Shown here piece after piece: positions 17,165 to 40,821 of a stretch of 46,063 bases of DNA; position 1 is the first letter of the stretch, and each line of letters opens with the position of its first letter. The position numbers and the translations under genes were made by a program. The notes under the pieces are model-generated. The model saw only the letters and a list, made by a program, of their open reading frames with translations, was not told the origin of the DNA and did no database searches. Source of the DNA: Candidatus Krumholzibacteriia bacterium (GTDB lineage Bacteria; Krumholzibacteriota; Krumholzibacteriia; WVZY01; JAKEHA01); the NCBI GenBank assembly GCA_025923935.1, contig JAICFA010000001.1:1-46063 (forward strand). Direction: 5' to 3'.

Positions 17165-17202
17165 CCACCAATCCCGATCAATCGGGAGAATCAGCCTACG
17201 AC

Positions 17203-18510: not shown

Positions 18511-18843
18511 TGTATTGACCTCCTCTGGTGGGAATGGCGTTTTCACCGATCTTCGCCGGTCACCACCGGCCCATTCCCGTTGATATCGGCTACTAACCAA
18601 ACGCCCTGACGGGTGCTCCGCTGGGGCAGTGCGCCTTGCGGCGAACGATCAATTACCCGAGCCCATTCACCTCCTTGCCGAAGGCACTCCTGGCAGCGGC
18701 CCTTGCGGACCGCCTTTACGAGTCATCAATCGCGCGGCCTGTCGCGGCCCACGCCCTCCGGTTCGTCTTCCGGCACCCGCCACGCGGGCAGAAGCTCCGG
18801 GGAAGGGCCTCCTTTTCGGAGACACTTCCAGCTTTGAGCGCGA

Positions 18844-18873
18844 AATCTATCGGCGCCCCTCAAAACCTGTCAA
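18844..18873 (-). promoter_or_regulatory. Candidate sigma70-type promoter of the barrel gene, implying a ~325-nt leader
   Basis: Minus strand: TTGACA (18868-18873), 18-nt spacer, TAGATT (18844-18849). Lies just downstream of the NlpC/P60 stop. Confidence 0.4.
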
Positions 18874-18923
18874 TCATTCTTTTTAGGAGGTTTCCGGGGG
18901 CGAGATTAAGGGGTTCTACCGAG

Positions 18924-21795: not shown

Positions 21796-21852
21796 GTGCG
21801 CGCGAGCGTAGCGCAAGCCGCGCGCCCGCTGCAATCGAAGCGTTTGGCGCTT

Positions 21853-23406
21853 TTAGTGCGCGACGCGCACGCCGCTGAAATCGTTGCCGAGGTAGAGACT
21901 GGGCAGGCGGTATCCGTCCACGCGTTCCGCCACGATGTGGAAGGTGGTGGGAAAATACAGGTAGACCCACGGTGCTTGGGAGAACACCAGACTGTCGACG
22001 CTCGCGCTGGCCGCCGCGCGGCGCGCCGGGTCGAGCTCGCGGCTGGCGTCTTCGATCATCCGATCCACCTGCGGATCGGAGAAGAAGGAGCGGTTGCCGC
22101 CGCCACCGTGATTGGAGGAGTGAAACAGCGGAAACAGGAAATTCTCCGCGTCGGGATAGTCGGCAAACCAATCCAGCAAGAAGGCGTCGACTTTGCCGGC
22201 GCTGACCGCCTGCTTGAAGGCACTCCATTCGCGGCGCACCAGTGTCGCATCCACCCCCACCGCACGCCAATACCCCTGTACCGCTTCCATCACGCGGCCG
22301 CCCTCGGCACTTTCCCGCAGCCAAACTTCCAGGTGTAAATTCTCCGCGCCGGCTTCCTGCAGCAGGCGCTTCGCCAGCACGGGATCGTACTCGTAGCCGG
22401 GGCGCTCCTTGAAACCGGGAATGCCCGGCGGTATGGCGCCGTGGGCGGGAATCGCGGCACTCGCTTGCAACACGCGCGACAGCTCCGCCACATTGACCGC
22501 GTGATTCAACGCGCGGCGCACGCGCACGTCGGTGAATTTTGGATTGTTGATTCCGATGTAGAATACGCGCAGCTCGGGGCGCTTCAGCACGCGCGACGCC
22601 CGCTGGGAATCGTCGAGAAAGCGCGGCACTTCCGCGTCGGGAATCTCCAGCACGTCGATGGCACCCGTCTCGAACTCGGCGATACGCGTGAACGGTTCCG
22701 GGATGATGCGGTAGCGCACGCCGTCGATGGCCGTCGCGCGCCGCGCATGGTGGGGATTGGGCACCAACGTGATGTGGTCGCCGCGTACCCACTCCGATAC
22801 CACCCACGGCCCCGAACCCAACGGTATGCCGTCCACCGGCGTACTGCGCGTGTCGACGACGCGCGCCGCCGGCAGCGCCAGCATCGACAAAAACGGCGCA
22901 AACGGTTCCGCCAACTCGACGACGAGCGTCGAGTCGTCGCTAGCCTCCAGCCCGGCGATCGCGCTGGCCTTACCGTCGCGAAAATCACGCGCGCCGCGAA
23001 TACGCTCGAGCACCCACGTGCGCGGCGAGGCCGTGGCCGGTGCCAGCACGCGCTCGAAGCTCGCGCGCACATCGTCGGCCCGAACCGAACGCCCGTCGGA
23101 AAAGCGCGCGCGCGCGTCGATGTGAAACACGAAGCGGCGCCCGTCGGGTGTTTCCCACGCGCGCGCAACTCCGGGCGAAAGGACTCCTTCCGGCGATAAA
23201 CCCACCAACCCTTCGAACACGAGCGCGCAAATCTCGCCTTCGGAGACATCGACGGCGAATGCCGGATCGAGACGATTGGGGGCTGTCTCCAACGCCAGCT
23301 CGAGCATGGGTGAAGACGCACGCTCCTGCCCGCAACTGACTGCCAAAGCGGCGAGGGCGACGCAGAAAAGAATGCTGGGACGATACGATCGTTCCTCTCC
23401 GCTCAT
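21853..23406 (-). CDS. Family-5 ABC substrate-binding protein (peptide/nickel type), probable lipoprotein
   Basis: MSGEERSYRPSILFCVALAALAVSCGQ signal with Cys, then a full-length SBP_bac_5-like body (...RVFYIGINNPKF...WFADYPDAENFLFPLF...). ATG at 23404-23406; no obvious SD. Confidence 0.85.
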   Translation of the reverse strand: MSGEERSYRPSILFCVALAALAVSCGQERASSPMLELALETAPNRLDPAFAVDVSEGEICALVFEGLVGLSPEGVLSPGVARAWETPDGRRFVFHIDARARFSDGRSVRADDVRASFERVLAPATASPRTWVLERIRGARDFRDGKASAIAGLEASDDSTLVVELAEPFAPFLSMLALPAARVVDTRSTPVDGIPLGSGPWVVSEWVRGDHITLVPNPHHARRATAIDGVRYRIIPEPFTRIAEFETGAIDVLEIPDAEVPRFLDDSQRASRVLKRPELRVFYIGINNPKFTDVRVRRALNHAVNVAELSRVLQASAAIPAHGAIPPGIPGFKERPGYEYDPVLAKRLLQEAGAENLHLEVWLRESAEGGRVMEAVQGYWRAVGVDATLVRREWSAFKQAVSAGKVDAFLLDWFADYPDAENFLFPLFHSSNHGGGGNRSFFSDPQVDRMIEDASRELDPARRAAASASVDSLVFSQAPWVYLYFPTTFHIVAERVDGYRLPSLYLGNDFSGVRVAH

Positions 23407-23495: not shown

Positions 23496-24776
23496 TCACA
23501 GGTCGCCTTCGACCAATTTGAAATCCCCCACTCCAAACATGTCGAAGAAGACGAACGTGCGATTCTGCGAGTAGTAACGCCAAATCTCGTATTCGCCCTG
23601 CGCGCGCTGGTCCATCGCGGTATCAATCTGCTCCGGCGGCCCGAAGCGAATGTAGACGCGCCCGCGGTCCGAGCGCCAGCCGGCGCCGAATTGCGAGTAA
23701 TGCCGCACCGCGTACTGCACGCGCTCGAGGTGCTGGGTGAGGGCCTCGTTCTCGATGGTGTTCGGGTCCGGATCGCGCGCTGCCCAGAACTTCGCCCACG
23801 CCGCCGGGCGGTCGGCGGGAGCGGCGTCGCGCAGCGGCTCGAGCTCTTTCTGGTTGGCGATCAATCCCAACACCTCCAGCGTCGCGTCGAAGTCGGCGCC
23901 GAGCATGGCGCGCGTCACGTCGATACGGATCTCGGTGCTGGTGGTCGCGTCGCGCTGTGGAGCATCCGTTTGCGCTCGCAGGTTGACGCGATACACGCCC
24001 GGGAGCCATTCGTCCACGTTGAAGATGAGCACGAACTCGTCGTCCGTATTGCCGGTGGCCGTCAAGTCGACGCGGCGTTTCCCGTAGACCATTTGGTGAT
24101 CGTTGGCGTCCACGACTTCGTAGAAAACATCCACCGGCACGCGCCGCTCCGCTCCGTCTTTCACGAACACAGTAAAGCGCACTCCCGGCTGGCGGTCGAA
24201 CCCCACGATGGCTGCGTCGGGCGGCGCATCCGCGCCTTTGAGCTGCTGGGCGAGTTCGCTCCAGCGCGCAAACGTCTGCCGAAACGGCGTGGGCACGGAG
24301 ATCACGGTGGGCGTGCCGAACGCCATGCCCGATGCGAGAAAGTCGGGCACACGCAGCGTCACCGTGCGGCGCATGCCGATGCTCGTGTTCTTGATGGTGA
24401 GGAGCGCGTCGATCTGGTAATCGCCCGGCGGCAGTTTGATCACGCGCCACGCGCGCGATTTGGCGTCGCGCCGCCGCGTTTCTTCGTACGTTTTTACGGT
24501 GGCGAAGCCGTTCAGCACGTAAGTGGTCGGCTCATCGCCACCGTCCTTGCGCACCGAGATGCGCGCGTCGTAGCGAGCGTCGTAATAGCCCTCTTTCTTG
24601 AGGAACACGAGCGTGCGAAACGGAACCTCGACGGTGACGCGCGCCACGGGAGTACGGGTCGAGTCGAGGTACGCGTTGGCGAACAATCCGAACGGCTGTG
24701 CCTGGGCGGACACGGCCGCGCCGGCGATGACGGCCGCGGTCAAGACGGCGAAAATGCTGCGGTGGATAAGACTCAT
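23496..24776 (-). CDS. Secreted GWxTD-domain protein (canonical motif)
   Basis: Signal peptide MSLIHRSIFAVLTAAVIAGAAVSAQA. C-terminal ...FGAGWRSDRGRVYIRFGPPEQI...YEIWRYY...FVFFDMFGVGDFKL matches the GWxTD signature. The 1004-aa track ORF is this CDS plus an out-of-frame read-through of the upstream permease genes. Confidence 0.85.
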   Translation of the reverse strand: MSLIHRSIFAVLTAAVIAGAAVSAQAQPFGLFANAYLDSTRTPVARVTVEVPFRTLVFLKKEGYYDARYDARISVRKDGGDEPTTYVLNGFATVKTYEETRRRDAKSRAWRVIKLPPGDYQIDALLTIKNTSIGMRRTVTLRVPDFLASGMAFGTPTVISVPTPFRQTFARWSELAQQLKGADAPPDAAIVGFDRQPGVRFTVFVKDGAERRVPVDVFYEVVDANDHQMVYGKRRVDLTATGNTDDEFVLIFNVDEWLPGVYRVNLRAQTDAPQRDATTSTEIRIDVTRAMLGADFDATLEVLGLIANQKELEPLRDAAPADRPAAWAKFWAARDPDPNTIENEALTQHLERVQYAVRHYSQFGAGWRSDRGRVYIRFGPPEQIDTAMDQRAQGEYEIWRYYSQNRTFVFFDMFGVGDFKLVEGDL

Positions 24777-24850
24777 GGGTCGGGCCGAGCGGCGACTTGA
24801 AGGGAACTTAGGCGACCGCCCGGCTCGGGGGCAAGGAGGAACCCCAGCGA

Positions 24851-26101
24851 TCATTCGTGGCGGAGCGCAGCCACCGGGTCCATGTCGGAGGCGCGCCGTG
24901 CCGGGTAGAGCCCGAAGCCCACGCCCACCAGGATGGAAAACACCAGTGCCACCACGGTCCAACCGGGAGAAAAGACGAACGGAAAGCGAATCAGCTTGGA
25001 GACTCCGATGGCCAGCGCCGTGCCCAGTGTCACGCCGATGACCCCGCCCACGCCGGTGAGCGTGGCCGCTTCGATCAGGAACTGCCGCATGATGTCGGCG
25101 CGCGCCGCACCGATCGCCCGCCGCACACCGATTTCGCGCGTGCGCTCGGTCACCGAAATCAACATGACGTTCATTACCCCGATGCCGCCCACTACCAGCC
25201 CGATGGACGCGATGATGGTGAGCACGATGCCGATGGGTACGGTGACTTTCTTGACGAGCGTAAGGAACGACTCGCTGGTTTCGATGGAGAAGTTGTTGGG
25301 CTGACCGGGCCGCAGTCCGCGCCGCACGCGCAGCGCCCGCGTCACTTCTTCCACGCCTTGTTGGAGGGATGCCCCGTCGCGCACGGTTGCACCCAGCGTG
25401 ATCCAATCGTTCTCGGTGTGCAAATCCTTGCCGAACGTCGGATGCGGAACGCACACGAAGTTGTCCGACCACGCACCGAATATGCTCTTGCGCGGCGCCA
25501 TGGTACCGATGACTTCGTACTTGGCGCCGTTGATGAGGACGAAGCGGCCGATGGGGTTCAGCTGCGGGAACAAATCCTTGGCCGGTCCCGCCGCCAACAC
25601 CACCACGCGCTCGCGAAAACGCTCTTCGCTCTCGGTGAAGAATCGCCCGCGGTCGACGGAGAGCGAAAACAGCTCCGGCAGCCGGTAGGAGCAGCCCAGC
25701 ACAGTCGTGGGCGGTGTTTTTTCCGCGCCGTAGCGAACCACATAGGTGCCTTGCGACTCGATCATGAACACCGAGGCATCCACGCTGGGGCAGGTGGACG
25801 CGATGACGGCGGCGTCTTCGCGCGTGAAGTCGGGGCGGAGCCACAAGTTCTCGGCACCCTCGTCTTCCACGACGAAATCGAACTTTTGCGCGTAGATGTA
25901 GGGGCGGTTGGCGGACGCCATGTCCTGGTAGATCTTCTTGCTCAGCCCCGACAGCACCGTCACCATCATCAGCACGGTGGCGATACCGATGGCCACGCCC
26001 ACGATGAGCAGTGCGGAGCGCATGCGGTGCGCGCGCATCACTTCCACCGCTTGCGCGATGTTTTCGTCCCACAGACTGTTGCGGCGAATGGGTGCCGGCA
26101 T
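24851..26101 (-). CDS. MacB/FtsX-type ABC transporter permease (second of two)
   Basis: N-terminal TM, ~230-aa periplasmic MacB_PCD-like domain, C-terminal FtsX three-TM bundle (ISVTERTREIGVRRAIGA...). Confidence 0.9.
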   Translation of the reverse strand: MPAPIRRNSLWDENIAQAVEVMRAHRMRSALLIVGVAIGIATVLMMVTVLSGLSKKIYQDMASANRPYIYAQKFDFVVEDEGAENLWLRPDFTREDAAVIASTCPSVDASVFMIESQGTYVVRYGAEKTPPTTVLGCSYRLPELFSLSVDRGRFFTESEERFRERVVVLAAGPAKDLFPQLNPIGRFVLINGAKYEVIGTMAPRKSIFGAWSDNFVCVPHPTFGKDLHTENDWITLGATVRDGASLQQGVEEVTRALRVRRGLRPGQPNNFSIETSESFLTLVKKVTVPIGIVLTIIASIGLVVGGIGVMNVMLISVTERTREIGVRRAIGAARADIMRQFLIEAATLTGVGGVIGVTLGTALAIGVSKLIRFPFVFSPGWTVVALVFSILVGVGFGLYPARRASDMDPVAALRHE

Positions 26102-26104
26102 GGC

Positions 26105-27349
26105 TTACTCCGAGCGCAGCGCTTCCACCGGGTCGAGGCGCGCGGCGCGCAGCGCGGGATAGGTGCCGAAAACGAGCCCCAACGCGATGGTCACCGCCAG
26201 TGCCACTCCTACCACGGCGGCGTTCACCACGTAGGGAAGCACCGACAGCGCCGACACGATGGCCGCGATGGAGAATCCGATCGCCATTCCCGCCACACCC
26301 CCGAATACCGACAGCGTTGCGGACTCCACCAGGAATTGCCACATGATCGCACCCTGCGGCGCGCCCACCGCCTTGCGCAATCCCACTTCGCGGGTGCGCT
26401 CGGTGACCGACACCACCATGGTGTTCATCAGCACAATGCCGCCCACCAGCATGGACACGCTCACCAACGCCACCAGCGCGGTCATGACGCCGCGACTGAC
26501 CGACTTCCATAGATTGATCAGCTGTTCGCTCGACGACACCGCGAAATCGTTTTCTGCGCGCGGGCCCAGGCCGTGGCGGATGCGCATCGCGACCGTGGCC
26601 TCCTCCATGGCGGCGTCGAGATTGCGAATGTCGTCGGCGACAATTTGGATCTGGACCGATTCATTCGGACCGAAGAGCTTGCGGAACGCACCCAGCGGTA
26701 CGATGACGAAGCGGTCGCGGCTCTGCCCCAGCACCTTGCCGCGTTGCGCGGCCACGCCGACCACGCGAAAGTGGCGGTTGCCGATACGAATCACCGCACC
26801 CGACGCGTCGCGCGGCGCGAGCAGCGCCTGGTACACGTCCCACCCCACCAGTGCGACTTGCGCGTTCTCGCGGTCGTCCACCTCGGTGACGTGGCGGCCT
26901 TCGGCCAGCGGAATCTCGTTCACGAACGGGTAGTATGCGTCGCAGCCCGCCACCTCGACCTCGACGCTCTTGCTCAGCGCGGACACCTTCACCGCGTCCT
27001 GGGCAGCGCGCGCGCTCACGTAGCGCGCGTGCTGGAGCGACTCGCGCAGCGCGACGGCGTCGGCGCGCGTGAGCTGCGGGTTGTGCAAGACTTTATCGAC
27101 GAACTTTTCGAAGTCCTCGATGGCCTGGAAGAAATCGACGCGGCGAATGGTGAAGAGGTTGCTGCCTTCGGACGCCACCTCGGTACGCATGTACAGATCG
27201 ATGCCGCCCAAGAGCGACACCACCGCGATCACCGACATGATGCCGACGATGTTGCCGAGCAGAGTGAGAAACGTGCGCAGCTTGTTGGCCGAGAGCGCGT
27301 GGTACGCGATGCGCACGCCCTCGAGGACGACGCGAAGAGTCGGACGCAT
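26105..27349 (-). CDS. MacB/FtsX-type ABC transporter permease (first of two)
   Basis: Same architecture as its neighbour (VSVTERTREVGLRKAVGA...). 3-nt gaps on both sides. Confidence 0.9.
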   Translation of the reverse strand: MRPTLRVVLEGVRIAYHALSANKLRTFLTLLGNIVGIMSVIAVVSLLGGIDLYMRTEVASEGSNLFTIRRVDFFQAIEDFEKFVDKVLHNPQLTRADAVALRESLQHARYVSARAAQDAVKVSALSKSVEVEVAGCDAYYPFVNEIPLAEGRHVTEVDDRENAQVALVGWDVYQALLAPRDASGAVIRIGNRHFRVVGVAAQRGKVLGQSRDRFVIVPLGAFRKLFGPNESVQIQIVADDIRNLDAAMEEATVAMRIRHGLGPRAENDFAVSSSEQLINLWKSVSRGVMTALVALVSVSMLVGGIVLMNTMVVSVTERTREVGLRKAVGAPQGAIMWQFLVESATLSVFGGVAGMAIGFSIAAIVSALSVLPYVVNAAVVGVALAVTIALGLVFGTYPALRAARLDPVEALRSE

Positions 27350-27352
27350 GCG

Positions 27353-28639
27353 CTACGACCCCTTCCGGCGCTCCGCGTCCTGCTTGACCTTGACCGCTTG
27401 ACCGTCCTTCAAATCGGCGATGGTCTTGAACGGCCCTGACACCACCTGTTCGCCCTCTTTCAATCCCGAAAGCACCACGAAATGGCTCTGGCCGGCGATG
27501 CCGACGCGCACCGGCCGGAAATGAGCGACGCCGTCCGCCACCACGAACACGCCTTCGATTTCGCGAGGCTTTTCGTCGCTGGAGGCGGTGTCCGCGGAGG
27601 TGGTGTCGCTCGCCTGCGCCTCGTCGTTCTTGCCGCGACGCTTTTCGCGCGCGAGACGCGCGGGGTCGCGCACGGTGAGACACTGAATCGGAACGGCGAG
27701 TGCTTTCTTCTCTTTCGCGACACCGATGTCGACCGACGCCGACAGTCCCGGACGAATGTTGGGGATGGAATCGTTGATGGCAACCACGACTTTAAAATCG
27801 ACCGACTCCTGCCCCATGCCGACTTGCATGCGCAACGCACTATTGCCGACTTCGGTGACCACGCCGCGATAGGTGGTGTCGGGCTGCGCGTCGAGGCGGA
27901 CGGTGGCGTCTTGCCCGGTGCGCACGAGCACCACTTCAGTCTCGTCGACGCGCACCTCCGCCTCCATCTCGGAAAGATCGGCGATGGTCAACAGCACCGT
28001 GCCGGGGTTGTTGATGGTGCCCATGATGGCGCTCTCGCCCTCCTCGACGTTCAAGGTGGTAATCACCCCCGACATCTCCGCCACGATGCGCACCTGGCGC
28101 AAGTCGTGGCGCGCCCGCCGCAGGTTGGCCTGCGCTTGCGCGTGCATCTCCTCCGCCGACTGCACGCGCGCGCGCGCCATATCGAGCAACGCTTGCGCGT
28201 CCTTGAGCTCGGTGTCGGACATGAATCCTTTTTCGCCCAACTGGCGCGCGCGGTCGAAGTCGTATTCCGCCTTGCGCAGTCCCGCTTGCTCGAGCTGGAG
28301 GGTCGCTTCCGCGCCGCGCACGGCCGCCTGCAGCTGCTCGACCGTGGTTTCGTACGGCTCGGCGTCGATTTCGAGGAGGAAGTCGCCCTTCTTCACCCGC
28401 TGCCCTTCCGCCACCGCGAGCTTGGTCACACGGCCGATGGTGGTCGCACTGACGTCGACGCGGCGCTTGGGCTGGATCTCGCCCGACGCGGTGACCACCT
28501 TCGATACGTCGCGGCGGCCTACGTCCGCCACTTCCACGTCCACGCGCTTACCGCGTTTGCTCCCCAGATTGATGGCGAGCAATGCGGCCAGCACCAGCAC
28601 GCCGGCCGCCACCATGATGGTCTTTCGCTTCCTGGTCAC
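27353..28639 (-). CDS. Periplasmic adaptor (HlyD/MacA-type membrane fusion protein)
   Basis: N-terminal TM, lipoyl/barrel-sandwich halves flanking a coiled-coil hairpin (LQAAVRGAEATLQLEQAGLRKAEYDFDRARQL...). GTG start 5 nt after AAGGAG. Confidence 0.9.
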   Translation of the reverse strand: MTRKRKTIMVAAGVLVLAALLAINLGSKRGKRVDVEVADVGRRDVSKVVTASGEIQPKRRVDVSATTIGRVTKLAVAEGQRVKKGDFLLEIDAEPYETTVEQLQAAVRGAEATLQLEQAGLRKAEYDFDRARQLGEKGFMSDTELKDAQALLDMARARVQSAEEMHAQAQANLRRARHDLRQVRIVAEMSGVITTLNVEEGESAIMGTINNPGTVLLTIADLSEMEAEVRVDETEVVLVRTGQDATVRLDAQPDTTYRGVVTEVGNSALRMQVGMGQESVDFKVVVAINDSIPNIRPGLSASVDIGVAKEKKALAVPIQCLTVRDPARLAREKRRGKNDEAQASDTTSADTASSDEKPREIEGVFVVADGVAHFRPVRVGIAGQSHFVVLSGLKEGEQVVSGPFKTIADLKDGQAVKVKQDAERRKGS

Positions 28640-28651
28640 TCGTGCTCCTTA

Positions 28652-29344
28652 CTACGCCGGAATGGGGTCGCGACGCCGGTCCACTTCGATGCGGCCGTCG
28701 CGCAGCCGCACTTCGCGTCGCGCGTGCGCCGCGACGGCGTCGTCGTGCGTCACCACGATTAGCGTGTTGCCGCGAGCGTGCAGCTCCTCGAACAGCTTCA
28801 TGATCTCCGCGCCCGACTTCGAGTCCAAATTACCGGTGGGCTCGTCGGCGAGAATGATGGAGGGCCGGTTGACCAGTGCGCGCGCGATGGCGACGCGCTG
28901 GCGTTGCCCGCCCGAGAGCTCGTTGGGTTTGTGGTGGGCGCGATCCTGCAGCCCCACCGCCTCCAGCGCGGCGGCCGCGCGCTCGCGCCGCGTGCCGGCG
29001 TCCAACCCCGCGTAGATCAGCGGCAGCTCGACGTTTTGAAACGCCGACGCCCGCGGCAAGAGGTTGAAGGTTTGAAAGACGAAGCCGATTTCTTTGTTAC
29101 GAATGTGCGCCAGCGTGTCGTCCGACATGCTCGTCACATCTTCGCCGTTCAAGACGTAGCGGCCCTCGGTGGGCGAATCGAGGCAGCCGATGATGTTCAT
29201 GAACGTCGTCTTGCCCGAGCCGGAGGGGCCCATCAAGGCGAGGTACTCGTTGCGGTCGACGTCCAGGTCGACCCCGTCGAGCGCGTTCACCACATGGCTG
29301 CCCATTTGGTAGCGCTTGGCAATACCGCGCATTTCGATGAGCAT
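28652..29344 (-). CDS. ABC transporter ATP-binding protein (MacB-NBD/LolD-like, stand-alone)
   Basis: Walker [11 protein letters not shown]-loop, LSGGQRQR, Walker [14 protein letters not shown]-loop VTHD. Confidence 0.95.
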
Positions 29345-29422
29345 AGAAGTGTATGGAGCATAGCACGCGGGCGGGTCGCCGCCTAGCAGCGCCCGCCCGC
29401 GCGAGAAGTGTGCAAGGATCGA

Positions 29423-30751
29423 TTAGCGCGCGGTGACTTTGCGTCCCGTAGCGCGCTGCAGATCGGCACGATTGACGAGATAGTCGACGCGTGCGTCGAT
29501 CAAGCTGGCCTGCGCGGACGTGAGCGACGAGCTCGCTTCGATGGTTTCGAGAATGGTACCGGCACCCACGCGATAGCGCTCTTCCGCCAGGCGCAGGTTT
29601 TCTTCCGCGGCTGCGACCGTTTCCTCCGCCAGCTCGAGGCGCTCGATGGCCTGCTCCAGGTTGAGCACGATCTGCTTGACGTCGAGCACGGCGTCGATCT
29701 TCGCCTGCTGCAAATTCCACTCGGCGATGCGCTGCTGCGCCTCGGTGGCCTGGATGTTGGCCTTGGTCTGGAAGCGGTCGAAGAGATTCCAGTTCAGGAA
29801 CGCACCCACCGACCATTGGTAGTTGTTCTTGAATACCTCACCGCTGCCGGGGAACTCGCGGTCGTTCCAACCGTAGCTGAAGGATCCGTCGATGGTCGGA
29901 TAACGCGCTTTTTTCACCGCCGACAGCTCGGCGCGCGCCGCGTCGATGCGGAACTGGCTGGCCAAGAGGTCGGACCGATTCTCGAACATGTACGCGACCT
30001 CTTGGTTGAAATCGACCTCGGCGGGTCCGAACTCGATCGACTCGTCGATCTCGAGCTCGGTCTCCTGTGGAATGTTGAGGCGCGACTTGAGGCGCGCGTC
30101 GGCTAGTGCCTGCGCGTTGCGCACGTTCATGAGCAACAACTCGCTGTTCGAATAGTCGACACGAGCCTGCAGGTAATCCGCCTTGGTGCGCGAGCCGATG
30201 TTGTAGAAGGCTTCGATCTGTTCCAGGTTGCGGCGCTTGGCCTCCAGGTTGGCAACCTGCACTTCCTCCAGACGGTTTTGCCGCACCAGCTCGTAATACT
30301 CGCGAATGGTAATGGCGCTGACCAGATCCTGCGTGTACTTGAGGTCGTATGCGGCAGCGTCGGCGCTGCGCTTGGAGCGCGTGATGTTGTTGTAATTGGC
30401 ACCCCAGTTGAACAAGGAGAGCTGACTCGAGAGCGAGAACGAATACTGCTCGTAGTCGAAGCCGCTGGGCTGGATGGGACGCCCTTGAGCGTCGATGACC
30501 ACACCGGTGGTCGGCCCCGCCCATGCGTGCCCCGCCCACAAGTTGACCCCCAAGTCGGGCATGAGTCCGCCGTAGCTGCGCATGACATCGCCGCGCGCCA
30601 CTCGCAGGTTTTCCCGCGAAACGCCCACGTCGGTGGACGCTTGCAGAGCGAGGTTGACGCTTTGCTCGAGGTCGAGTACCTCGGCCTGAGCAGTGGGCAC
30701 GAGCGCGCACACGATTAGCAGGTGGGCAGCAATCGCCCGGCGAAGAGTCAT
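29423..30751 (-). CDS. TolC-family outer-membrane efflux channel
   Basis: Signal peptide MTLRRAIAAHLLIVCALVPTAQA, then two OEP repeats along the full length. ATG at 30749-30751 is preferred over the track start at 30814. Confidence 0.88.
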   Translation of the reverse strand: MTLRRAIAAHLLIVCALVPTAQAEVLDLEQSVNLALQASTDVGVSRENLRVARGDVMRSYGGLMPDLGVNLWAGHAWAGPTTGVVIDAQGRPIQPSGFDYEQYSFSLSSQLSLFNWGANYNNITRSKRSADAAAYDLKYTQDLVSAITIREYYELVRQNRLEEVQVANLEAKRRNLEQIEAFYNIGSRTKADYLQARVDYSNSELLLMNVRNAQALADARLKSRLNIPQETELEIDESIEFGPAEVDFNQEVAYMFENRSDLLASQFRIDAARAELSAVKKARYPTIDGSFSYGWNDREFPGSGEVFKNNYQWSVGAFLNWNLFDRFQTKANIQATEAQQRIAEWNLQQAKIDAVLDVKQIVLNLEQAIERLELAEETVAAAEENLRLAEERYRVGAGTILETIEASSSLTSAQASLIDARVDYLVNRADLQRATGRKVTAR

Positions 30752-30912
30752 CTGGTCACCTTCCATTGGCAAGTAAAGAGATGCGGCCACCGCCGCCGTT
30801 GTTTTCGCGAGCAAAGACGAACGTAGTACGGCGGGGGGCGTTCGAATGTTCCGGCCATTATAGCCGCGACCGCCCGCCGGCAGGGGTAAAAAAAGGCGGG
30901 ATGGGAACGTCC

Positions 30913-31350
30913 CTAGGGGGCGCGCGGCGGGGCCGGGGCCCGTTCCTGCTCGCTCGTGAACGACAAGCGCGCGGCGTTGGCCTGCTTGAGCTCCTCGATG
31001 ACGTCCGCGACCACGCCGTAGGGGGCGTGCGTATCGGCGTTGAGCGCGACCACGGCGTCGGGCCGCTCCATCATCGTCGCTTTGATGAGATTCTCGACCT
31101 CGGACAACGCCACCAAGCGGTCATTGATCGAAATTCGTCCACCTTGGTCGATCCAGATGTCGGCGACGTGCTCGCGGCTCGGCTTTTCTGTCGACTGGGC
31201 GCGCGGTAGAACGATCTGAAGCCCCTGGTCGAGCCGGAAGATGGTGGTCGCCATGAAAAAGATGAGCAGCAGGAACGCCACGTCGCCCATCGACACCGTC
31301 GGGATGGTGTTGGCCACACGATTCTTTCGTTCGAAGCGAGACGCGCGCAC
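30913..31350 (-). CDS. exbD: ExbD/TolR-family biopolymer transport protein (second copy)
   Basis: MGDVAFLLLIFFMATTIF TM motif plus a periplasmic ExbD fold. GTG start. Confidence 0.9.
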   Translation of the reverse strand: MRASRFERKNRVANTIPTVSMGDVAFLLLIFFMATTIFRLDQGLQIVLPRAQSTEKPSREHVADIWIDQGGRISINDRLVALSEVENLIKATMMERPDAVVALNADTHAPYGVVADVIEELKQANAARLSFTSEQERAPAPPRAP

Positions 31351-31353
31351 GAA

Positions 31354-31764
31354 TCACTCCACCGTCTTGAGGGAGATGCGGCGACAGTTGGCCAGCTTGA
31401 TCTCGTCCAGCAAATCGACCATCAATCCGTATTCCGCGCTGCGGTGCGTGGTCAATAGCACCACCAACTCGGGATTGCTGCGCAAGCGCTGCTCGATGAT
31501 GCGGCGCACACCCGACACCGCCACGGGTTGGCCCTGGACTTCGACACGGCCGCCCGCCAGCGCCTGGATCTCGAGCACAGCAGACGCGTCCACGCGCGTC
31601 GCGGTGGTGGCTTTTCCGGGCAAGACGAGCGGAATTCCCTCCTCCACCGCGAAGGTGGTCGTCACCACGAAAAACACGAGCAAGAGGAACGCGAGGTCGG
31701 ACATCGACGCGGCCTGAAATTCGCACGCACCAAATTGGAATCTGCCGCGGCGGCGCTGAATCAT
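31354..31764 (-). CDS. exbD: ExbD/TolR-family biopolymer transport protein (first copy)
   Basis: MSDLAFLLLVFFVVTTTF TM motif. Lies 2 nt after the exbB stop. Confidence 0.9.
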   Translation of the reverse strand: MIQRRRGRFQFGACEFQAASMSDLAFLLLVFFVVTTTFAVEEGIPLVLPGKATTATRVDASAVLEIQALAGGRVEVQGQPVAVSGVRRIIEQRLRSNPELVVLLTTHRSAEYGLMVDLLDEIKLANCRRISLKTVE

Positions 31765-31766
31765 GG

Positions 31767-32633
31767 CTAGCTGCGCGACAGCGGAGGTCGTCCGTTCGGG
31801 CGGGACGGGCGATCGAGATCGATGAGCTCATCGACCAAGTCCGCGCTCGCTTCTTCCATCTCGAGCACGAAGCGATCGATCTGCAAAACGAAGTACGAAT
31901 AGAACGCGGACACCGGAACGGCGATCATGAGTCCCGCGGCGGTGGTGATGAGCGCTTCTTCGATCCCCTTCGCCACCAGCTTGGCCGACACTTGCTCGGC
32001 CGCGGCGATGGCGGCGAACGCGGCGATCATACCGGTCACGGTGCCCAAGAATCCGAGCAGCGGGGCCACGTTCGACACCGACGCGAGTGCCAACAGGCCG
32101 CGCTCGAGGTGCGCCATCTCGATAGCACCGGCCGAGTTGATCGCCTTCTCCACCGCTTCTGGGCCGCGCTCGGCGCGCAACAGCCCGGCGTGCATGATGG
32201 CGGCGATGGGACCGCGCGAACGCTGGCACATTTGCAGCGCCGCGTCCGGGCCTTCGGTGCGCAGCGCCTCCGTCACTTCCAGCATGAGCTTGCGCGTGTT
32301 GGTGCGCGCGCGCGAAAGCGTCCACAACCGCTCGACGATGAGCACCAGGCCGATGATGGCGCACAGCAGAAGCGGGTGCATGCAGACGCCGCCCTTGATG
32401 TAGAGCTGGCCCAGCGCACTGTTGCGGATGCGGCCGAAAAACGAGCGGTCGCGGGAGGAAACGGCGGTGTCGGTAGTGGACGGCGTGATAGTGGCCGCGA
32501 CGGAGTCGGAATCCGCCTTCGCGACCACCGGTGCGGTGCGCGGGATGCCGCCTTGCGCCGACGCCACGACCGGCATCAGCAAGAGCGTCAACAGCGCGAG
32601 AACCGGCCAGGTGTTGTTCGGAGTCACTCGCAT
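31767..32633 (-). CDS. exbB: MotA/TolQ/ExbB proton-channel protein with signal peptide and extended periplasmic N-terminus
   Basis: MRVTPNNTWPVLALLTLLLMPVVASAQ, then a ~55-aa Ser/Thr/Ala/Asp-rich stretch, then the ExbB core (...VAPLLGFLGTVTGMIAAF...EALITTAAGLMIAVP...). ATG at 32631-32633; the 478-aa track ORF overlaps the upstream gene. Confidence 0.9.
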   Translation of the reverse strand: MRVTPNNTWPVLALLTLLLMPVVASAQGGIPRTAPVVAKADSDSVAATITPSTTDTAVSSRDRSFFGRIRNSALGQLYIKGGVCMHPLLLCAIIGLVLIVERLWTLSRARTNTRKLMLEVTEALRTEGPDAALQMCQRSRGPIAAIMHAGLLRAERGPEAVEKAINSAGAIEMAHLERGLLALASVSNVAPLLGFLGTVTGMIAAFAAIAAAEQVSAKLVAKGIEEALITTAAGLMIAVPVSAFYSYFVLQIDRFVLEMEEASADLVDELIDLDRPSRPNGRPPLSRS

Positions 32634-32651
32634 ACGCAGTCGACGTGCGCG

Positions 32652-32680
32652 ACCATAGCGGCGCAGCCCTCCCCTGTCAA
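32652..32680 (-). promoter_or_regulatory. Candidate internal sigma70-type promoter directly upstream of exbB
   Basis: Minus strand: TTGACA (32675-32680), 17-nt spacer, TATGGT (32652-32657). The -10 ends 18 nt before the exbB ATG. Confidence 0.35.
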
Positions 32681-32698
32681 CCGCGGCCCGAGCGGGTA

Positions 32699-34261
32699 TT
32701 ACTTTTCGGATACGGTGGAGCTGCGCTCCAGCGTGTAGACGCCGTGGCCGTCGCGGTCGATGAACAGGAAGCGCATACCGATGTCGGTTTCCTGAACCTT
32801 GTCGCGCGCCAGCATGGGCTCGCCGCCGGCTTGGTAAACCCACAGCTCGTAGGGCACGCCCGTGTTGTCTTCCGGCCGGGTGCGCGCGTTGGGCGAACCC
32901 CCGGTGATCGAGTTGCGAATGACGGGCAGCGTGTACGCCTTGGTGGGCCCGGAACTGTAGTTCATGGGATGGTACGGGTCCTCGACGATCGTTTCCGCCT
33001 CTTGCAGGGTTTCGTAGTTGAGGGGAATCACGTCCTGAATGACCTCGTCGGGTGGGCCGTAGCGAAGGTAAATCTCGCCTTGCGGCGATAAGATCGCGGG
33101 ACCGCGCTCGCTGTAGTGCGCATTGATGTACGCCATGCGCTCCACGAAGGTGTCGTACGCCTCGTTGCCGCCGCTGTCGGGTGTGGGGTCGAAGCCCTTC
33201 CACAGCGCATCCAGAACTTGCTCCTGCTCGCCGGGACTCTTCGACTGGAAGGCTGTGAATTCGTCGTCGCCCAAAAGAAAGCGCGCTTCCGCCAAGTACT
33301 CACGCCGCGGAATCTCCCACGTGCGCATGTCCCACGCGACCGAAAAGTCGCCGCTCTTCACGCGCGCGATCGATTCGCCGCCCAATCCGAACGATAAGTA
33401 GAGCGAGTAGACCCCGGCCTGCACCGCGGCGAGGTCTTCGCGCAAGAACACCGGGTAGGCGCGCAAGCCCGTCCCGCTTTGCACCGACGGGTTGGGCAGC
33501 GTGCGCTTGGTTTCGCGCACGAGCTCGCCCTTGGCGTTTATAATTTCCGTGCGAAAGTCGAAGGTCGGTGCTTGGGCCAGCGAGTCGGGCAGATAAAGCT
33601 CGACGTACACCTCCAGCGTGTCCTTGTAGAGCCCGAACATGCGCGCCGGGTTGGGCTGGTACTTGCGAATTCCCTGCTCGCGCTCGTTGACCCCCCACAC
33701 GAAAAGCGGTGTCGAGAACGACGGTTCGTTGTCCGGAATCTCGGGGATGGCGAAGCGGGTGCGCCGCACGACCGACGTCTTGTTCTTGTTCTTGATCAGT
33801 CCCAGGACGCTGATCTTGGGCGCGTCGAGGTTCTCGAGTGCGACCGTGAGCCAGTATCCGCCCGGGGCCAGGTTGAACTGCTTGATAACGGTCTGGTACG
33901 CGAGCGAGCTTTCGACGCGCGCGGCGTTCGTCTCGACGAACGTCATCGTCTCCTTGAGCTTCGCCACTTCCTTGCCGGCGTCGTCGGTGAGTAGGTAGCT
34001 GAAGACCACGCGCGTCTTCCACTCCGCCTTGCCCGACTCCTTGAAACGCAGCGAGTGGTTGCCAATGCGCACGAAGACGTCCGACACCACTTTATCGTCG
34101 CGACCGCGAAAGACGGCGGTGTCGAGGTAGAAGTCGAAGTCGCCGTGGCCCACTTGCTGGGCCGCGGCCGGCAGTGCCGCGCACAGCAGCGCGGCGGCCA
34201 AGAGAAAATGGGCGCCCCGAAGGGCGCCCACGTTCGCGGAAGTCTTCCGCTGTCGAATCAT
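32699..34261 (-). CDS. Secreted GWxTD-like protein with a degenerate motif and an inserted C-terminal segment
   Basis: Signal peptide MIRQRKTSANVGALRGAHFLLAAALLCAALPAAAQ. C-terminus ...ERGPAILSPQGEIYLRYGPPDEV...(63 aa)...YELWVYQ...RFLFIDRDGHGVYTL aligns with the GWxTD protein at 23496-24776, but the GW.TD residues are replaced. ATG at 34259-34261. Confidence 0.75.
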   Translation of the reverse strand: MIRQRKTSANVGALRGAHFLLAAALLCAALPAAAQQVGHGDFDFYLDTAVFRGRDDKVVSDVFVRIGNHSLRFKESGKAEWKTRVVFSYLLTDDAGKEVAKLKETMTFVETNAARVESSLAYQTVIKQFNLAPGGYWLTVALENLDAPKISVLGLIKNKNKTSVVRRTRFAIPEIPDNEPSFSTPLFVWGVNEREQGIRKYQPNPARMFGLYKDTLEVYVELYLPDSLAQAPTFDFRTEIINAKGELVRETKRTLPNPSVQSGTGLRAYPVFLREDLAAVQAGVYSLYLSFGLGGESIARVKSGDFSVAWDMRTWEIPRREYLAEARFLLGDDEFTAFQSKSPGEQEQVLDALWKGFDPTPDSGGNEAYDTFVERMAYINAHYSERGPAILSPQGEIYLRYGPPDEVIQDVIPLNYETLQEAETIVEDPYHPMNYSSGPTKAYTLPVIRNSITGGSPNARTRPEDNTGVPYELWVYQAGGEPMLARDKVQETDIGMRFLFIDRDGHGVYTLERSSTVSEK

Positions 34262-34262: not shown

Positions 34263-35210
34263 CTAGTAGCTGAACCCGAGCGAGATGCGGTGGACATTGC
34301 CCAAGAAGTCGAAATCGTTCCACGCATAGTCGAACGTCAGATCCGACGTCTGGCTGGTGTCGATGCGCAACCCCATGCCGGCCGACAACCCCTCGGCGTC
34401 GGTGTTGAAGTTATAGCCGCCGCGCAGGAAGAAGAACTGGTTGAAGCCGTACTCCGCGCCCAGGTTGATGCGTTCCTGGTTGTCCGACGGGTGGGTGAAC
34501 TCGAACACGCCCTGAAGGCTGTTGACGCCCTGCGAGTACGGGGTCGCCGCCATCGCCACCTTGAACATCGTCGGCATCTTGGAGGAACGGTCGTCGTAGT
34601 CGACTTCGCTGCCGAGGCTCTGGATCATCATGCCCAGCCGCATGCCCCACAGACCGATGCGGTAGATCAATCCGAAGTCGAAGGCGAAGGTGTTCACACT
34701 CTTCTCCGCCAAACCGGAGTGGATGAAGTGCACGGTCGCACCCGAGGAGAACTTGTCGGTGAAGAACTTGGCGTACGACAAACCGAACGACATATCGCCC
34801 GCGTCGAACTCTTCGCCGGTTCCTTCGGGAAGGTAGATGGTGCGCACCACCTGCGGGTCCATGGTGAGCGCGCGCGCGCTGACTCCCCACGTGCCCGGCA
34901 CGAACGGCAGTGTGAACGCACCCGCCGCGTAGTTGAGCTTGATATCGGCGGGCCACCACGTGTACGACAGCGAAATGTCGGTGCGCGTGATATCGACCAT
35001 GCCGGCTGGGTTCCAGTACGTCGCGGTGGCGTCGTTGGAAATGGCGGTGAAGGCACCTCCCATGCCGGAGCCGCGCGCCGACACGCCGATCTTCAGGAAC
35101 TGGAGGGAATATGTACCCACCTTCGCGAAGGGCTCGGTGGCAAACGACTGCGACGGCAGCGCCGCCACGACGAGTGCTGCCGCAATACCCTGCATGAACC
35201 TTGATCTCAC
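34263..35210 (-). CDS. PorV/PorQ-family outer-membrane beta-barrel protein
   Basis: FLKIGVSARGSGMGGAFTAISNDATATYWNPAGM is the hallmark PorV/PorQ N-terminal motif. C-terminal ...HRISLGFSY. GTG at 35208-35210 (9 nt after GGAGG) gives the signal peptide (M)RSRFMQGIAAALVVAALPSQSFA. The track start (TTG, 35219) abuts the SD. Confidence 0.85.
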   Translation of the reverse strand: MRSRFMQGIAAALVVAALPSQSFATEPFAKVGTYSLQFLKIGVSARGSGMGGAFTAISNDATATYWNPAGMVDITRTDISLSYTWWPADIKLNYAAGAFTLPFVPGTWGVSARALTMDPQVVRTIYLPEGTGEEFDAGDMSFGLSYAKFFTDKFSSGATVHFIHSGLAEKSVNTFAFDFGLIYRIGLWGMRLGMMIQSLGSEVDYDDRSSKMPTMFKVAMAATPYSQGVNSLQGVFEFTHPSDNQERINLGAEYGFNQFFFLRGGYNFNTDAEGLSAGMGLRIDTSQTSDLTFDYAWNDFDFLGNVHRISLGFSY

Positions 35211-35246
35211 TGTTTCCAACCTCCTGAAGGATTCCGGCGTACCGGT

Positions 35247-38200
35247 CTAGAACTCAAACCCGAGGCCCAACCGCCACAAACGGTGGGTTTCCCAAATCGT
35301 CGGGTCGAACACCGGGTTGAAGTCGTCGCGGCCGTCGGCGTCCTGATCTTGGAGATAAGCGCCGCCGTACTGCCCTGTTTCCGTCAAATACGATCCGCCA
35401 TCCATTTGCGCCGCGACCAGAGCCGGGAAGGCATTCGGTGCGTTGCCATTGGGCAAAAGCACGTCCTCGTCCAGCAAGTTGCGGCCTTCGAAGAAGAGTG
35501 TCAGCTCGCGTCCGTACACGTTGAAGAGCTTGCGGCCCTGGATCGACAACTTGTGCGTCGGCTCCAAGCGGCGCGAGTTCTCCCACGTGGGATCGTTCAA
35601 ACGCGCGAAGCGATCCACCGGCGTCCACGGGAGTCCCGAGCCGTACTGGTAGATCATGGTCGCGCCCCACTTGTTGCGATCCTGCAAGCGCAGTGTCACG
35701 TTGAACGTGTTGCGCTGGTCCCAGTCGAGCGGATACTCCTCGGTCGGCAAGTGGGTCAAGCCTTCCGCCGAGCGCCCGAAGTCGGAGTCGCTGGCGACAC
35801 CGTCTGCAAACGAATACGTGTAGTAGACCTCGAAGCCCAGGCGGCGCGTGAGCCGCTTCTCCAGCGAGAGCTCCACACCGCGCGAGCTGGCGTACGTGCG
35901 GTTGATGAAGCGAAACGCCTGCACGCCGGTGGAGTCGTCGGTCACACGGGTCGAGGAGATGAGGCCGTAGATGTCCTTGTTGAACACGACGAAGTTGGCC
36001 GCGATGTCGTCGGTGAATTGGTGCGAGATACCGGCCTGATACGACACGGTCAGCTCGGGCTCCAGATTGGGGTTGCCGAGCGTGCCCAGCGAGCCTACCG
36101 GATCCTGGGTGCGAAACAGGAATTGCCGACTCGGCCATTGCGTGAAGCGCCCGTAGTGGAAGAAGAACTTGTCGCGGTCGGTGATGGGAAACGCCACACC
36201 GAGGCGCGGCGAGAGGTTCCACTTGAACTCGTCGACCGATTGGTCGATATCGGCGCTGGCGATGTCGATCTCGCTGTTGTTACCCACCGTGAACCACTCG
36301 TAGCGCAGGCCGCCATTGACGACCATGCCTTCGTAGTCCCACTTGTCCTGCACGTACACCGCGCCTTCGGCGTTGTAGTTCTCGTAGACATTGACGTTCA
36401 GGCCCTGCTGCAGAATCCCGTTCTCGTCGATACGCGTCTGCGCGGGGTTGACGCGCTCGTCGTCGTTCAGGTCGTTATAAAGGACTTGGATACCGGTCTT
36501 GAGGCGGTGACCCTTGAACTGGTCCGAGACCACGTCGCCCTTGAACAGGTACTGCAGCGAGCGCTGGTCCGAATAGAACGGGTAGTCGTAGGCGGTGACG
36601 AAGTACGGGAAGTCGTCGTCCGTGTACCACACCGCATTGGAAACACCCGCGTTCAGGAAGGTGCCGTCCGGCAGGGTGATCGGCAAGCCGGCGGTCGTAA
36701 ACTCCGCCGGCGCTTTCTGCTCGCCCAACTCATCCAGCACCGAGCTCGTGGTCTTAAGATCGAGGCGTGAGAGCTTGAGCGTGTAGAGCAGCTTGGGCGT
36801 GATGTTGTGGCTGAATCCCAGCTTGAGCTGGAGGTTTTCCGCACGCGTCTCGGGCGTGTGCATGGCCGAGTTGAAGGGCACGAACGACGAGTCGGCGCCC
36901 TGCGGTGAGGTGATGAACGGCTTGAAGTCGCTCGCCCCACGCTGGAAGCCTTCGAACAAGGCCCACGGCTTGTAGGTGATGGAACCGTCGGGGGCTTGCT
37001 GGACTTCGTCCCAGAGCACCGTGACCATCGTGGTGCCGATACGGAAGTCGGCCGCGCGGTAGTTGGCGAAGAGCACCTGCGATTGCGTGCCGTCGGGGTT
37101 GCGCACGAAGTCGTACACGTCGACGGGACGCACGTTGAGCATCGCCGCCTGCTTGGCCGGATCCTTCGCGTCCGCCCACGGGCCGTGATTGATGGAGCGC
37201 AGTCGTCCGAACTGGAACTGCTCGCGACCGTTCTGGGGCGGACCGAGCAGGTCGAGGCCCTGGAAAAACCACACCTTTGACACGTAACCCTGAATGTTCC
37301 AGTTGTTGATGAAGTCGTCTTCGCGCAGCGACGAGTAGACCGCCTCGCCGTCGACTTTCATGCGCGACATCTTGTAGGTCATCTTGCCCTGGAGGTTGTA
37401 CGCCGACGTCTGGCGCTGGCGGAATTTGAACCAGTCGGTGATCTTGTGCTCTTCGCGCGGCTCGATGGTGGTGTTCTCGGTGTCGCTCCAGGTCGCTTCG
37501 CCCGAGACGTAGTAGCGCAGGTTCTTCCACCACGTCGGTCCGCCGAAACCAAGGCTCAAGCGGTCGAAGTTGGTGTACGTCTTGTCGGAGCGGCCGAAGT
37601 CGTCGGTGAAGTAGCGCACTTCGCCGCCGAAGGTCGCACCGCCTTCCTTGGTAGCAATATTGATAACCGCCGACTGCGCGTCGCCGTACTCGGCGTCCAT
37701 ACCGCCGGACACGATCTCGGAGCCCGACGTGCCCAAAGTCCCGACGTCGACCGAGCCGCCGCCGAGCGGATCCGACACGGGCACACCGTCGATCTGAATC
37801 TGTACTTCGTTGCTGCGGCCGCCGCGCACGTGCATGTCGTCGCCGGTCTTGACGATGCCTGCCTTCAAACCGACCGCTTCGATGATGTCGTCGACCGGCA
37901 TGTTCTGCACTTGTTCTTCGGAGACGTTGCCGGTGACCTGGGTTTCGGTCACTTCGACCATCGCCTTGTCCGCCGTGACGACGATATCTTGGATCTTCGC
38001 CACAACTTTCTCGTCGAGCTTGAATTGAACCGTCGCGGTGGAGCCGGCGTTGACGACGACGTTGGGTTTTTCCACGGGGGCGTAACCCATCATCATCACT
38101 TTGAGGGTGTAGGTGCCGATGGGGACGGGTTTGATCTCAAACTTACCGTCGGCGAGACTCATGGCACCCATGGTGGTGCCAACCAGAATGACGTTTGCGT

Positions 38201-38342: not shown

Positions 38343-38534
38343 TCGCGAAACCCCTTTCGCTTGCACACGAACCACTACCTAAAGGGCTCGTGCTCAAAAC
38401 GCCGTTAATATGTAGTGGTGGGGACGAATCCCGTCGCGGCGGTCCCAGAGCCTCCGCGGCGGCTTCGAACAAGGTGGGGTCACTCTATCACAGCCGTCCG
38501 CTGCAATACTAGCAATATCAGCGACTTCGACGCC

Positions 38535-38564
38535 AATATAGACCAGCCCGGCGGACATTGTCAA
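38535..38564 (-). promoter_or_regulatory. Candidate sigma70-type promoter of the TBDR operon
   Basis: Minus strand: TTGACA (38559-38564), 18-nt spacer, TATATT (38535-38540), in a locally AT-enriched stretch of the 374-nt gap. Confidence 0.5.
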
Positions 38565-40808: not shown

Positions 40809-40821
40809 TATTTCCGACAAT

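Follow-up and report, generated by a model that had tools for sequence, protein, structure and literature searches.

Contig JAICFA010000001.1 of a Candidatus Krumholzibacteriia genome (GCA_025923935.1) carries, in its positions 1 to 46,063 (hereafter the window, meaning the whole stretch of DNA that was analysed), two members of the GWxTD protein family, designated here P1 and P2, within a tightly packed run of envelope-transport genes. Twelve minus-strand genes lie between positions 38375 and 23496 with intergenic gaps of 1 to 98 bases, in the order TonB-dependent receptor, PorV/PorQ-family barrel, P2, ExbB, ExbD, ExbD, TolC-like protein, ATP-binding cassette (ABC) ATPase, membrane-fusion protein, two MacB-type permeases, and P1. 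P1 and P2 are full-length paralogues, their beta-rich N-terminal regions included, and the receptor and exporter modules that contain them are separable and recur across phyla, the fusion of both modules with both paralogues being the rule in Krumholzibacteriota. The explanation favoured here, held tentatively and at a little short of an even chance, makes P1 and P2 periplasmic accessory or adaptor proteins, exported by Sec and not lipidated, that belong to transport machines spanning the outer membrane: P2 to the receptor module and P1 to the TolC exporter, a reading drawn from gene order. The genes of the cluster are as follows.

35247-38375, minus strand: TonB-dependent-receptor-like outer-membrane protein, 1042 residues, with an N-terminal CarboxypepD_reg domain (Pfam TonB_dep_Rec_b-barrel 98 bits, CarboxypepD_reg 68 bits)
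34263-35219, minus strand: PorV/PorQ-family outer-membrane beta-barrel, 318 residues (NCBIfam NF033709 212.3 bits, cut-off 90)
32699-34261, minus strand: P2, GWxTD-family paralogue, 520 residues; after the signal peptide come two beta-rich segments, then a divergent GWxTD module that carries ~60 inserted residues (TIGR04514 54.1 bits)
31767-32633, minus strand: ExbB/TolQ-family proton channel, 288 residues from the ATG at 32633 (Pfam MotA_ExbB 107 bits)
31354-31764, minus strand: ExbD/TolR-family protein 1, 136 residues (Pfam ExbD 76.5 bits)
30913-31350, minus strand: ExbD/TolR-family protein 2, 145 residues (Pfam ExbD 88.2 bits)
29423-30814, minus strand: TolC-like outer-membrane efflux protein, 463 residues (Pfam OEP, two stretches, 197.9 bits)
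28652-29344, minus strand: MacB/LolD-type ABC ATPase, 230 residues (Pfam ABC_tran 122.9 bits)
27353-28639, minus strand: periplasmic membrane-fusion (adaptor) protein, 428 residues (TIGR01730 171.2 bits, cut-off 94.9)
26105-27349, minus strand: MacB-type permease 1, 414 residues (Pfam MacB_PCD 105 bits, FtsX 69 bits)
24851-26101, minus strand: MacB-type permease 2, 416 residues (Pfam MacB_PCD 119.5 bits, FtsX 79.9 bits)
23496-24776, minus strand: P1, GWxTD-family paralogue, 426 residues; a signal peptide followed by two beta-rich segments, ending in a canonical GWxTD module (GWRSD) (TIGR04514 96.2 bits, PF20094 47.5 bits)

That P1 and P2 share one layout, as the original prediction had it, is borne out by both open reading frames (ORFs) on the minus strand, by their matches to a common model and by profiles that align over the full length. 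The NCBIfam model TIGR04514 (GWxTD_dom, cut-off 28 bits) is matched by P1 at residues 301-402 (96.2 bits, E 1.4e-27) and by P2 at residues 323-410 (54.1 bits, E 1.8e-14), while the Pfam family PF20094 (gathering score 26.9 bits) scores above threshold for P1 (47.5 bits) and below it for the window P2 (15.1 bits), and at E up to 5 matches 35/35 P1 orthologues and 30/35 P2 orthologues, the best of the latter at 5e-10. Pairwise BLASTP alignment of the two proteins is limited to 74 C-terminal residues (31% identity, E 3e-12), and hhalign of P1 and P2 profiles, each made from 18 orthologues, extends over 404 columns (probability 100%, E 2.9e-47). The N-terminal regions of these profiles taken by themselves align over 229 columns (probability 99.6%, E 9e-24), so that the possibility raised with the original prediction, that these regions might prove unrelated, falls away. 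Each N-terminal region divides into two segments, which align in register from P1 to P2 (98.4% and 96.9%) and only weakly resemble each other, and control alignments of N-terminal against C-terminal profiles reach probabilities of 0.1-0.2%. Since the profiles align full length, N-terminal regions included, and the controls do not align, the shared layout reflects real homology.

The C-terminal motif said to be common to both proteins is indeed present in each, although its spacing differs: 13 residues separate GPPE from YEIW in P1 and about 62 do so in P2, where the insert is kept in the orthologues. P1 carries GWRSD at the name-giving position, whereas P2 has no literal GWxTD motif (it reads G-P-A-I-L-S-P-Q-G, with no W or D at the motif positions), and the tryptophan is not invariant in the alignments of either set of orthologues. 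Measured against the domain family, both proteins lie above the NCBIfam cut-off, and P2 is set apart by its lost motif and its insert. Both N-termini, read by eye, look like Sec signal peptides that finish in an Ala-X-Ala-type site and lack a lipobox. The N-terminal segments are probably beta-sandwiches, to judge from sub-threshold Pfam matches to beta-sandwich families (Wzt_C in 15/35 P2 orthologues, best E 5e-4; WxLIP_HBD in 5/35 and Y_Y_Y in 5/35 P1 orthologues) and from a crude Chou-Fasman profile in which the N-terminal region is nearly helix-free. In the same profile the first half of the C-terminal module is helical and strands appear at its end, and the GWxTD module seems to be made of helices with a small beta part after them. 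A likeness of the C-terminal part to BamE-type domains was set aside, no such family appearing in the Pfam scans of P1 and P2 orthologues. The start of P1 at 24776 is backed by the orthologue alignment; the mechanically called ORF extends to 26510 (1004 residues), and this 1004-codon open frame (23496-26510), overlapping a permease gene in another frame, is a high-G+C artefact of the kind that makes mechanical ORF lists misleading here.

The source genome is a metagenome-assembled genome of 3.16 Mb in 418 contigs, 89% complete, and contains five GWxTD matches, so that a single pair falling within 10 kb by chance in one genome would be only mildly unlikely. Chance is excluded as the source of the pairing because the pairing is kept in relatives. 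Both P1 and P2 have matches in 61/61 genomes of a first sample, and a P2 profile finds matches at E up to 1e-10 in 200/201 genomes sampled across the phylum. P1 and P2 lie 7,922 bases apart in the window, and among 60 relatives, 37 carry both on one contig, within 11 kb and on the same strand; a single genome (G027) has them on one contig at a great distance, 16 have them on separate contigs of a fragmented assembly, and in the remaining 6 (one of them only 65% complete) no P1 orthologue was found. They are thus within about 11 kb of each other in 37 of the 38 relatives that have both on one contig. One P2 orthologue (G035, contig C15, 85455-86953, in a genome 80% complete with 6% contamination) contains several stop codons and may be a broken gene or a product of poor assembly.

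Gene order is kept as well. Twenty loci from eight families of the phylum were mapped, their ORFs being labelled by comparison with the window proteins, and the order receptor-PorV-P2-ExbB-ExbD-ExbD-TolC-...-P1 is kept in all twenty, with the receptor gene first, the TolC-like gene upstream of P1, and P1 last in each. The adjacency of the two operons is accordingly not peculiar to this genome, the more so as the same order recurs in genome G202, discussed below. An ABC ATPase gene is present in 16/20 mapped loci. A TonB-like ORF follows the second ExbD gene in 11/12 examined loci of other genera (TonB_C confirmed in the three tested), whereas the source genus has no TonB gene in the cluster (window 30814-30913), the nearest TonB homologue of the genome lying on contig C59 beside another ExbB. 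Fifteen of the mapped loci further show a gap of 2.2-2.9 kb between the receptor and PorV genes, filled in 8/8 such loci examined (e.g., L078:3371-5905 and L074:11402-14188) by a protein of 825-971 residues, here called X, which matches no Pfam family bar a weak FlgD_ig at its C-terminus, where it also weakly matches the sorting-domain region of PorZ. Protein X is absent from the window, and four homologues are found elsewhere in the source genome (contig C23, 8854-13960, and contig C106 among the sites), two of them in tandem.

The separability of the two modules is illustrated by G027, a single contig of 4,308,810 bases in which some 137 kb, assuming a circular contig, separate the halves of the cluster. 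One half comprises receptor-PorV-P2-ExbB-ExbD-ExbD-TonB and the other TolC-ABC-adaptor-permease-permease-P1-binding protein, so that the breakpoint falls between TonB and TolC and each half retains one GWxTD gene. In a wider survey, one genome per species was scanned with profiles built from Krumholzibacteriota genes (a closer, 8-row alignment), and the best 80 loci were surveyed. The arrangement typical of Krumholzibacteriota accounts for 7 of these; TolC-adaptor-ABC-permease-permease-GWxTD, where a second GWxTD gene often stands in tandem, for 5 (Zixibacteria and other lineages), one of such exporter-GWxTD loci, L099, also having ExbB-ExbD-ExbD-TonB upstream; and receptor-(X)-PorV-GWxTD for another 5 (Gemmatimonadales and Ignavibacteriota). 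In 9 more, from Acidobacteriota, a MacB-type ATPase and an adaptor are divergently transcribed beside the GWxTD gene. Genome G202 holds the entire supercluster in Krumholzibacteriota order. A separate observation from this survey concerns four loci from KSB1 and other lineages (L106, L109, L111, L113), in which a protein of ~1040 residues is encoded within two genes upstream of the GWxTD gene; it carries PD40 repeats in 4/4 cases, Peptidase_MA_2 in 3/4 and an Omp85 domain in 2/4, and is another recurrent outer-membrane neighbour of GWxTD genes.

Trees bear less firmly on the age of the P1/P2 duplication. A 58-row tree groups P1 and P2 against the proteins of other phyla (Shimodaira-Hasegawa-like approximate likelihood ratio support, SH-aLRT, of 98), while a 43-row tree that adds the P2-like protein of G202 does not group them, the G202 protein joining the P2 group at 99, and P1 plus P2 as one group is not rejected by an approximately unbiased (AU) test (p 0.134). 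In neither tree does the P1-like copy of G202 fall within the Krumholzibacteriota P1 group. Both trees are unrooted with composition bias flagged, use 6 of the 9 Acidobacteriota loci, and leave out a truncated P2-like ORF of 203 residues at locus L107.

A third paralogue, P3 (contig C92, locus L006, 745-2451, minus strand), extends the pattern to a different transporter. It directly follows LptF-LptG (LptG 2448-3527, LptF 3505-4971), and this gene set faces a gene for the SprA type IX translocon (from 5246, plus strand; TIGR04189, 497 bits). P3 is found at E up to 1e-30 in 16/41 genomes, from families f1, f2, f5 and f8 and in one f4 genome, and LptG adjoins its orthologue in 12/13 assessable relatives. 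Its domain order is reversed: the GWxTD module is matched by residues 37-174, and the part homologous to the P1 and P2 N-terminal region comes later, at residues 303-546 (probability 96-98.7%). Since P3 carries both parts swapped, the beta region and the GWxTD module form one unit found in either order, of which the beta-rich partner region is covered by neither TIGR04514 nor PF20094 in P1, P2 or P3. By its position P3 would be the GWxTD protein of a third envelope transporter, LptFG, and its place directly after LptF-LptG, outside the window, parallels that of P1 after the MacB-type permeases; no Lpt-type (OstA) domain was seen in any GWxTD protein in Pfam scans of the orthologues. P3 is one of three GWxTD proteins that the genome encodes besides P1 and P2 (L006:745-2451, L007:10026-11615 and L008:1327-3390, on contigs C92, C16 and C202), in which the GWxTD module is N-terminal or central, in one case after tetratricopeptide repeats, the swapped beta region being shown for P3.

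Taken together, the full-length paralogy, the tight packing, the order kept in 20/20 loci, the split in G027, the recurrence in other phyla, the G202 supercluster, and the position of P3 at LptFG support the view of P1 and P2 as periplasmic accessory proteins of envelope machines. On this account P2 would serve the module of TonB-dependent receptor, PorV-like barrel and ExbB-ExbD(-TonB), and P1 would serve the TolC-based ABC exporter module; in Krumholzibacteriota both modules stand fused in one conserved same-strand supercluster. Both proteins would reside in the periplasm, associate physically with an outer-membrane component and perhaps hand cargo to or from the channel, the beta-sandwich segments acting as the binding part and the GWxTD module as the docking part, a division of labour suggested by gene order.

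Several observations weigh against this account. Adaptor and both permeases are present together in only 5/20 mapped loci and absent in the 15/20 where P1 persists, so that P1 is not tied to the ABC permeases, and its constant partner is the TolC-like gene. P1 also appears dispensable in part of the phylum and seems to be absent from many genomes of family f3: the loci mapped in G041, G051 and G050 end in TolC-ABC without P1, an ending seen in some genomes of families f3 and f7, and 54/87 f3 genomes have a single match to the P2 profile. In addition, the whole region, running from glycine-cleavage (Gcv) and oligopeptide transport (Opp) genes through the cluster to further Opp genes, rhomboid, RadC and Mre, looks strongly syntenic within the phylum, which weakens what can be concluded from conservation within Krumholzibacteriota. 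In the wider survey, 54 of the best 80 loci have none of the neighbours described above, and Pfam analysis of 120 flanking ORFs from 42 such loci returned mostly unrelated housekeeping genes, so that the machine association is limited to a subset of the GWxTD family; nor do the trees show matching exporter-linked and PorV-linked GWxTD subfamilies across phyla. The claim that each machine has a private GWxTD protein can thus be kept in part: the split in G027 and the separate modules of other phyla speak for it, whereas the constancy of the TolC-like partner, the scarcity of the permeases and the apparent loss of P1 in many f3 genomes speak against it.

Some of these observations also fit a different view, in which the neighbourhood is conserved without functional coupling: the GWxTD genes would be passengers in a stretch of envelope genes that is slow to rearrange, and would act independently of the machines next to them. 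The conserved flanks (oligopeptide ABC genes on both sides; rhomboid, RadC and MreB downstream), the unrelated neighbours of most GWxTD loci in other phyla, and the apparent loss of P1 in many f3 genomes while TolC-ABC stays would suit such passive linkage. It accounts less readily for the recurrence of the same kinds of neighbours in separate phyla and different surroundings, seen in 19/73 loci not classed as Krumholzibacteriota-type, for a single cluster split that leaves each GWxTD gene with one module, for the position of P3 after LptF-LptG in nearly all assessable relatives, or for a junction of 1 base between the stop codon of the PorV-family gene and the start of P2, and we regard it as an unlikely explanation.

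Alternatively, P1 and P2 could be assembly or stabilising factors that fold, insert or brace the barrels encoded upstream of them (the receptor and PorV-like protein for P2, TolC for P1), with no role in transport. The persistence of P1 in the 15/20 loci that lack adaptor and permeases fits this idea, and the constant neighbours of the paralogues are outer-membrane proteins and not inner-membrane parts. P3, on the other hand, follows the inner-membrane LptF-LptG and not a barrel gene, the Acidobacteriota copies stand beside an ATPase and an adaptor with no barrel labelled, and the genome has at least five TolC-like genes and five above-cut-off PorV-family matches for only five GWxTD matches, so that a dedicated barrel factor seems distinctly improbable. 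Very unlikely is a third alternative, in which P1 and/or P2 are cargo, scavenger proteins that would leave by the TolC exporter and serve the receptor: hemophore systems do combine receptor, exporter and dedicated TonB in one operon, and here machines for uptake and for export are encoded in a single cluster together with an energiser, flanked on either side by importer genes, but P1 and P2 are multi-domain proteins of 45-55 kDa with Sec-type signal peptides, neither a C-terminal secretion signal nor a type IX sorting domain turned up in Pfam scans of 35 P1 and 35 P2 orthologues, P1 persists where adaptor and permeases are absent, and an LptF-LptG-linked paralogue does not fit such a role.

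Comparison with known systems places the cluster near several of them. The exporter half resembles MacAB-TolC-type exporters, among whose relatives are DevCBA-HgdD and PvdRT-OpmQ, in having an ABC ATPase, an adaptor, permeases with MacB core and FtsX domains, and a TolC-like channel in one same-strand run, but differs in that the ATPase is a separate gene accompanied by two different permeases, as in LolCDE, instead of one fused MacB, and in that the run ends with an extra GWxTD gene. Against the fused MacB model NF007826 (E. coli MacB, a homodimer; 966 bits) window proteins reach 161-260 bits, the top NCBIfam matches of the ATPase are the ATPase part of MacB and LolD, each below its cut-off, and the TolC-like protein scores 138 bits with the TolC subfamily model TIGR01844 (cut-off 225). 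A Lol identity of the exporter was rejected, the permeases scoring 54.6 and 33.8 bits with the LolC/E equivalog TIGR02212 (cut-off 362), and contig C2 offers a far better LolC/E match (326 bits vs 47).

The receptor half is akin to TonB-ExbB-ExbD systems, with a CarboxypepD_reg-bearing receptor, one ExbB, two ExbD and, in other genera, TonB; it departs from them in the PorV/PorQ-family barrel and GWxTD protein inserted between receptor and ExbB, and in the source genus by the missing TonB gene. TonB-dependent receptors with a CarboxypepD_reg domain are of the Oar type; Oar is the subject of PMC6434023. The window receptor is matched in its barrel domain at 98 bits and in its Plug domain at 22.6 bits, just below the Pfam cut-off of 23.9. 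A Tol-Pal identity of the ExbBD genes, which belong to a genome with five MotA/ExbB-family loci, the window ExbB among them, was also rejected: the window has no TolB-like gene, and the best TolB-like match lies on contig C36 beside another TolQ-like (MotA/ExbB-family) gene.

A further likeness is to type IX secretion, in which PorZ-PorQ and PorU-PorV form anchor pairs. Related loci place X, with its weakly PorZ-like sorting-domain end, beside the PorV-family gene, and the source genome encodes the SprA translocon; the window, however, lacks X, and its barrel falls short of the equivalog cut-offs for PorV (92.3 bits against 250) and PorQ (92.5 bits against 220). Neither a receptor nor a GWxTD protein is, to our knowledge, part of any known type IX pair.

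The window has a G+C content of ~63%, and almost all its genes lie on the minus strand. Directly adjoining genes and promoter-like sites are the following.

38750-40925, minus strand: pair of oligopeptide-type ABC ATPase genes immediately 5' of the cluster (Pfam ABC_tran and oligo_HPY)
38535-38564, minus strand: promoter-like site 5' of the receptor gene (TTGACA, 18-base spacer, TATATT; 11/12 matches), a lead only
32652-32680, minus strand: promoter-like site within the 65 bases that separate P2 from ExbB (10/12 matches), a lead only
21853-23400, minus strand: family-5 solute-binding protein directly downstream of P1 (Pfam SBP_bac_5 261 bits)

The scan for promoters and terminators gave counts not above those of shuffled sequences, the 2 promoter-like sites comparing with 2.8 expected from shuffles. 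In many mapped loci homologues of the oligopeptide ABC ATPases precede the receptor gene, and the solute-binding gene likewise follows P1 in many of them, remaining with P1 in G027. The cluster as a whole lies between two partial oligopeptide-type ABC importer gene sets (38750-46050 and 8595-23400), with glycine-cleavage genes upstream and NlpC/P60, rhomboid, RadC, MreBCD, PBP2, RodA and Lgt genes further downstream on the P1 side; portions of this broader arrangement are also seen in other families of the phylum. Two ORFs, at 17203-18600 (~480 residues) and 7745-8632 (~295 residues), have coding-like third-position G+C and no Pfam match at E up to 1e-6.

With respect to what prompted the analysis, the observation of two GWxTD paralogues attached to adjacent trans-envelope machines is confirmed and proves stronger than first put, and its interpretation is partly supported. 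The suggestion that the island handles a surface polymer or lipid finds no direct support, the leads in that direction being limited to the sub-threshold Wzt_C matches and the location of P3 behind LptF-LptG.

Among 1.84 billion representatives, a profile built from P1 orthologues retrieves 14,156 clusters (50% identity, E up to 0.001), so that GWxTD counts as a large family; it is absent from 14/14 model-organism control genomes. Among cultured bacteria, Gemmatimonas, Rhodothermus, Ignavibacterium and green sulfur bacteria have members of it, and the species-wide scan includes a Prosthecochloris metagenome-assembled genome. Profile searches of Protein Data Bank sequences returned no solved structure with detectable similarity, a full-text search of one literature library found no paper naming GWxTD, TIGR04514 or PF20094, and the titles and abstract openings of a set of Krumholzibacteriota papers contain nothing on this cluster. 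GWxTD is, in short, a named family without a described function, for which the window and its relatives offer the first concrete functional lead: GWxTD genes repeatedly end operons of machines that cross the outer membrane, and one phylum keeps two paralogues in a single receptor/ExbBD/TolC cluster. This conservation hints that the family serves cell-envelope transport. A bolder extension, speculative and on balance doubtful, would see in GWxTD proteins an unrecognised class of periplasmic coupling subunits on several unrelated envelope machines (receptor/PorV-like, TolC-ABC and LptFG) in the Fibrobacteres-Chlorobi-Bacteroidetes group and Acidobacteriota, whose beta-sandwiches would bind lipid- or glycan-linked cargo or a partner while the GWxTD module docks at the outer membrane, and would see in the Krumholzibacteriota supercluster an integrated export-and-recapture system, the two paralogues joining its halves. 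Should the link between GWxTD proteins and their neighbouring machines be physical, well-known machines in many environmental phyla would have an extra subunit that has gone unrecognised.

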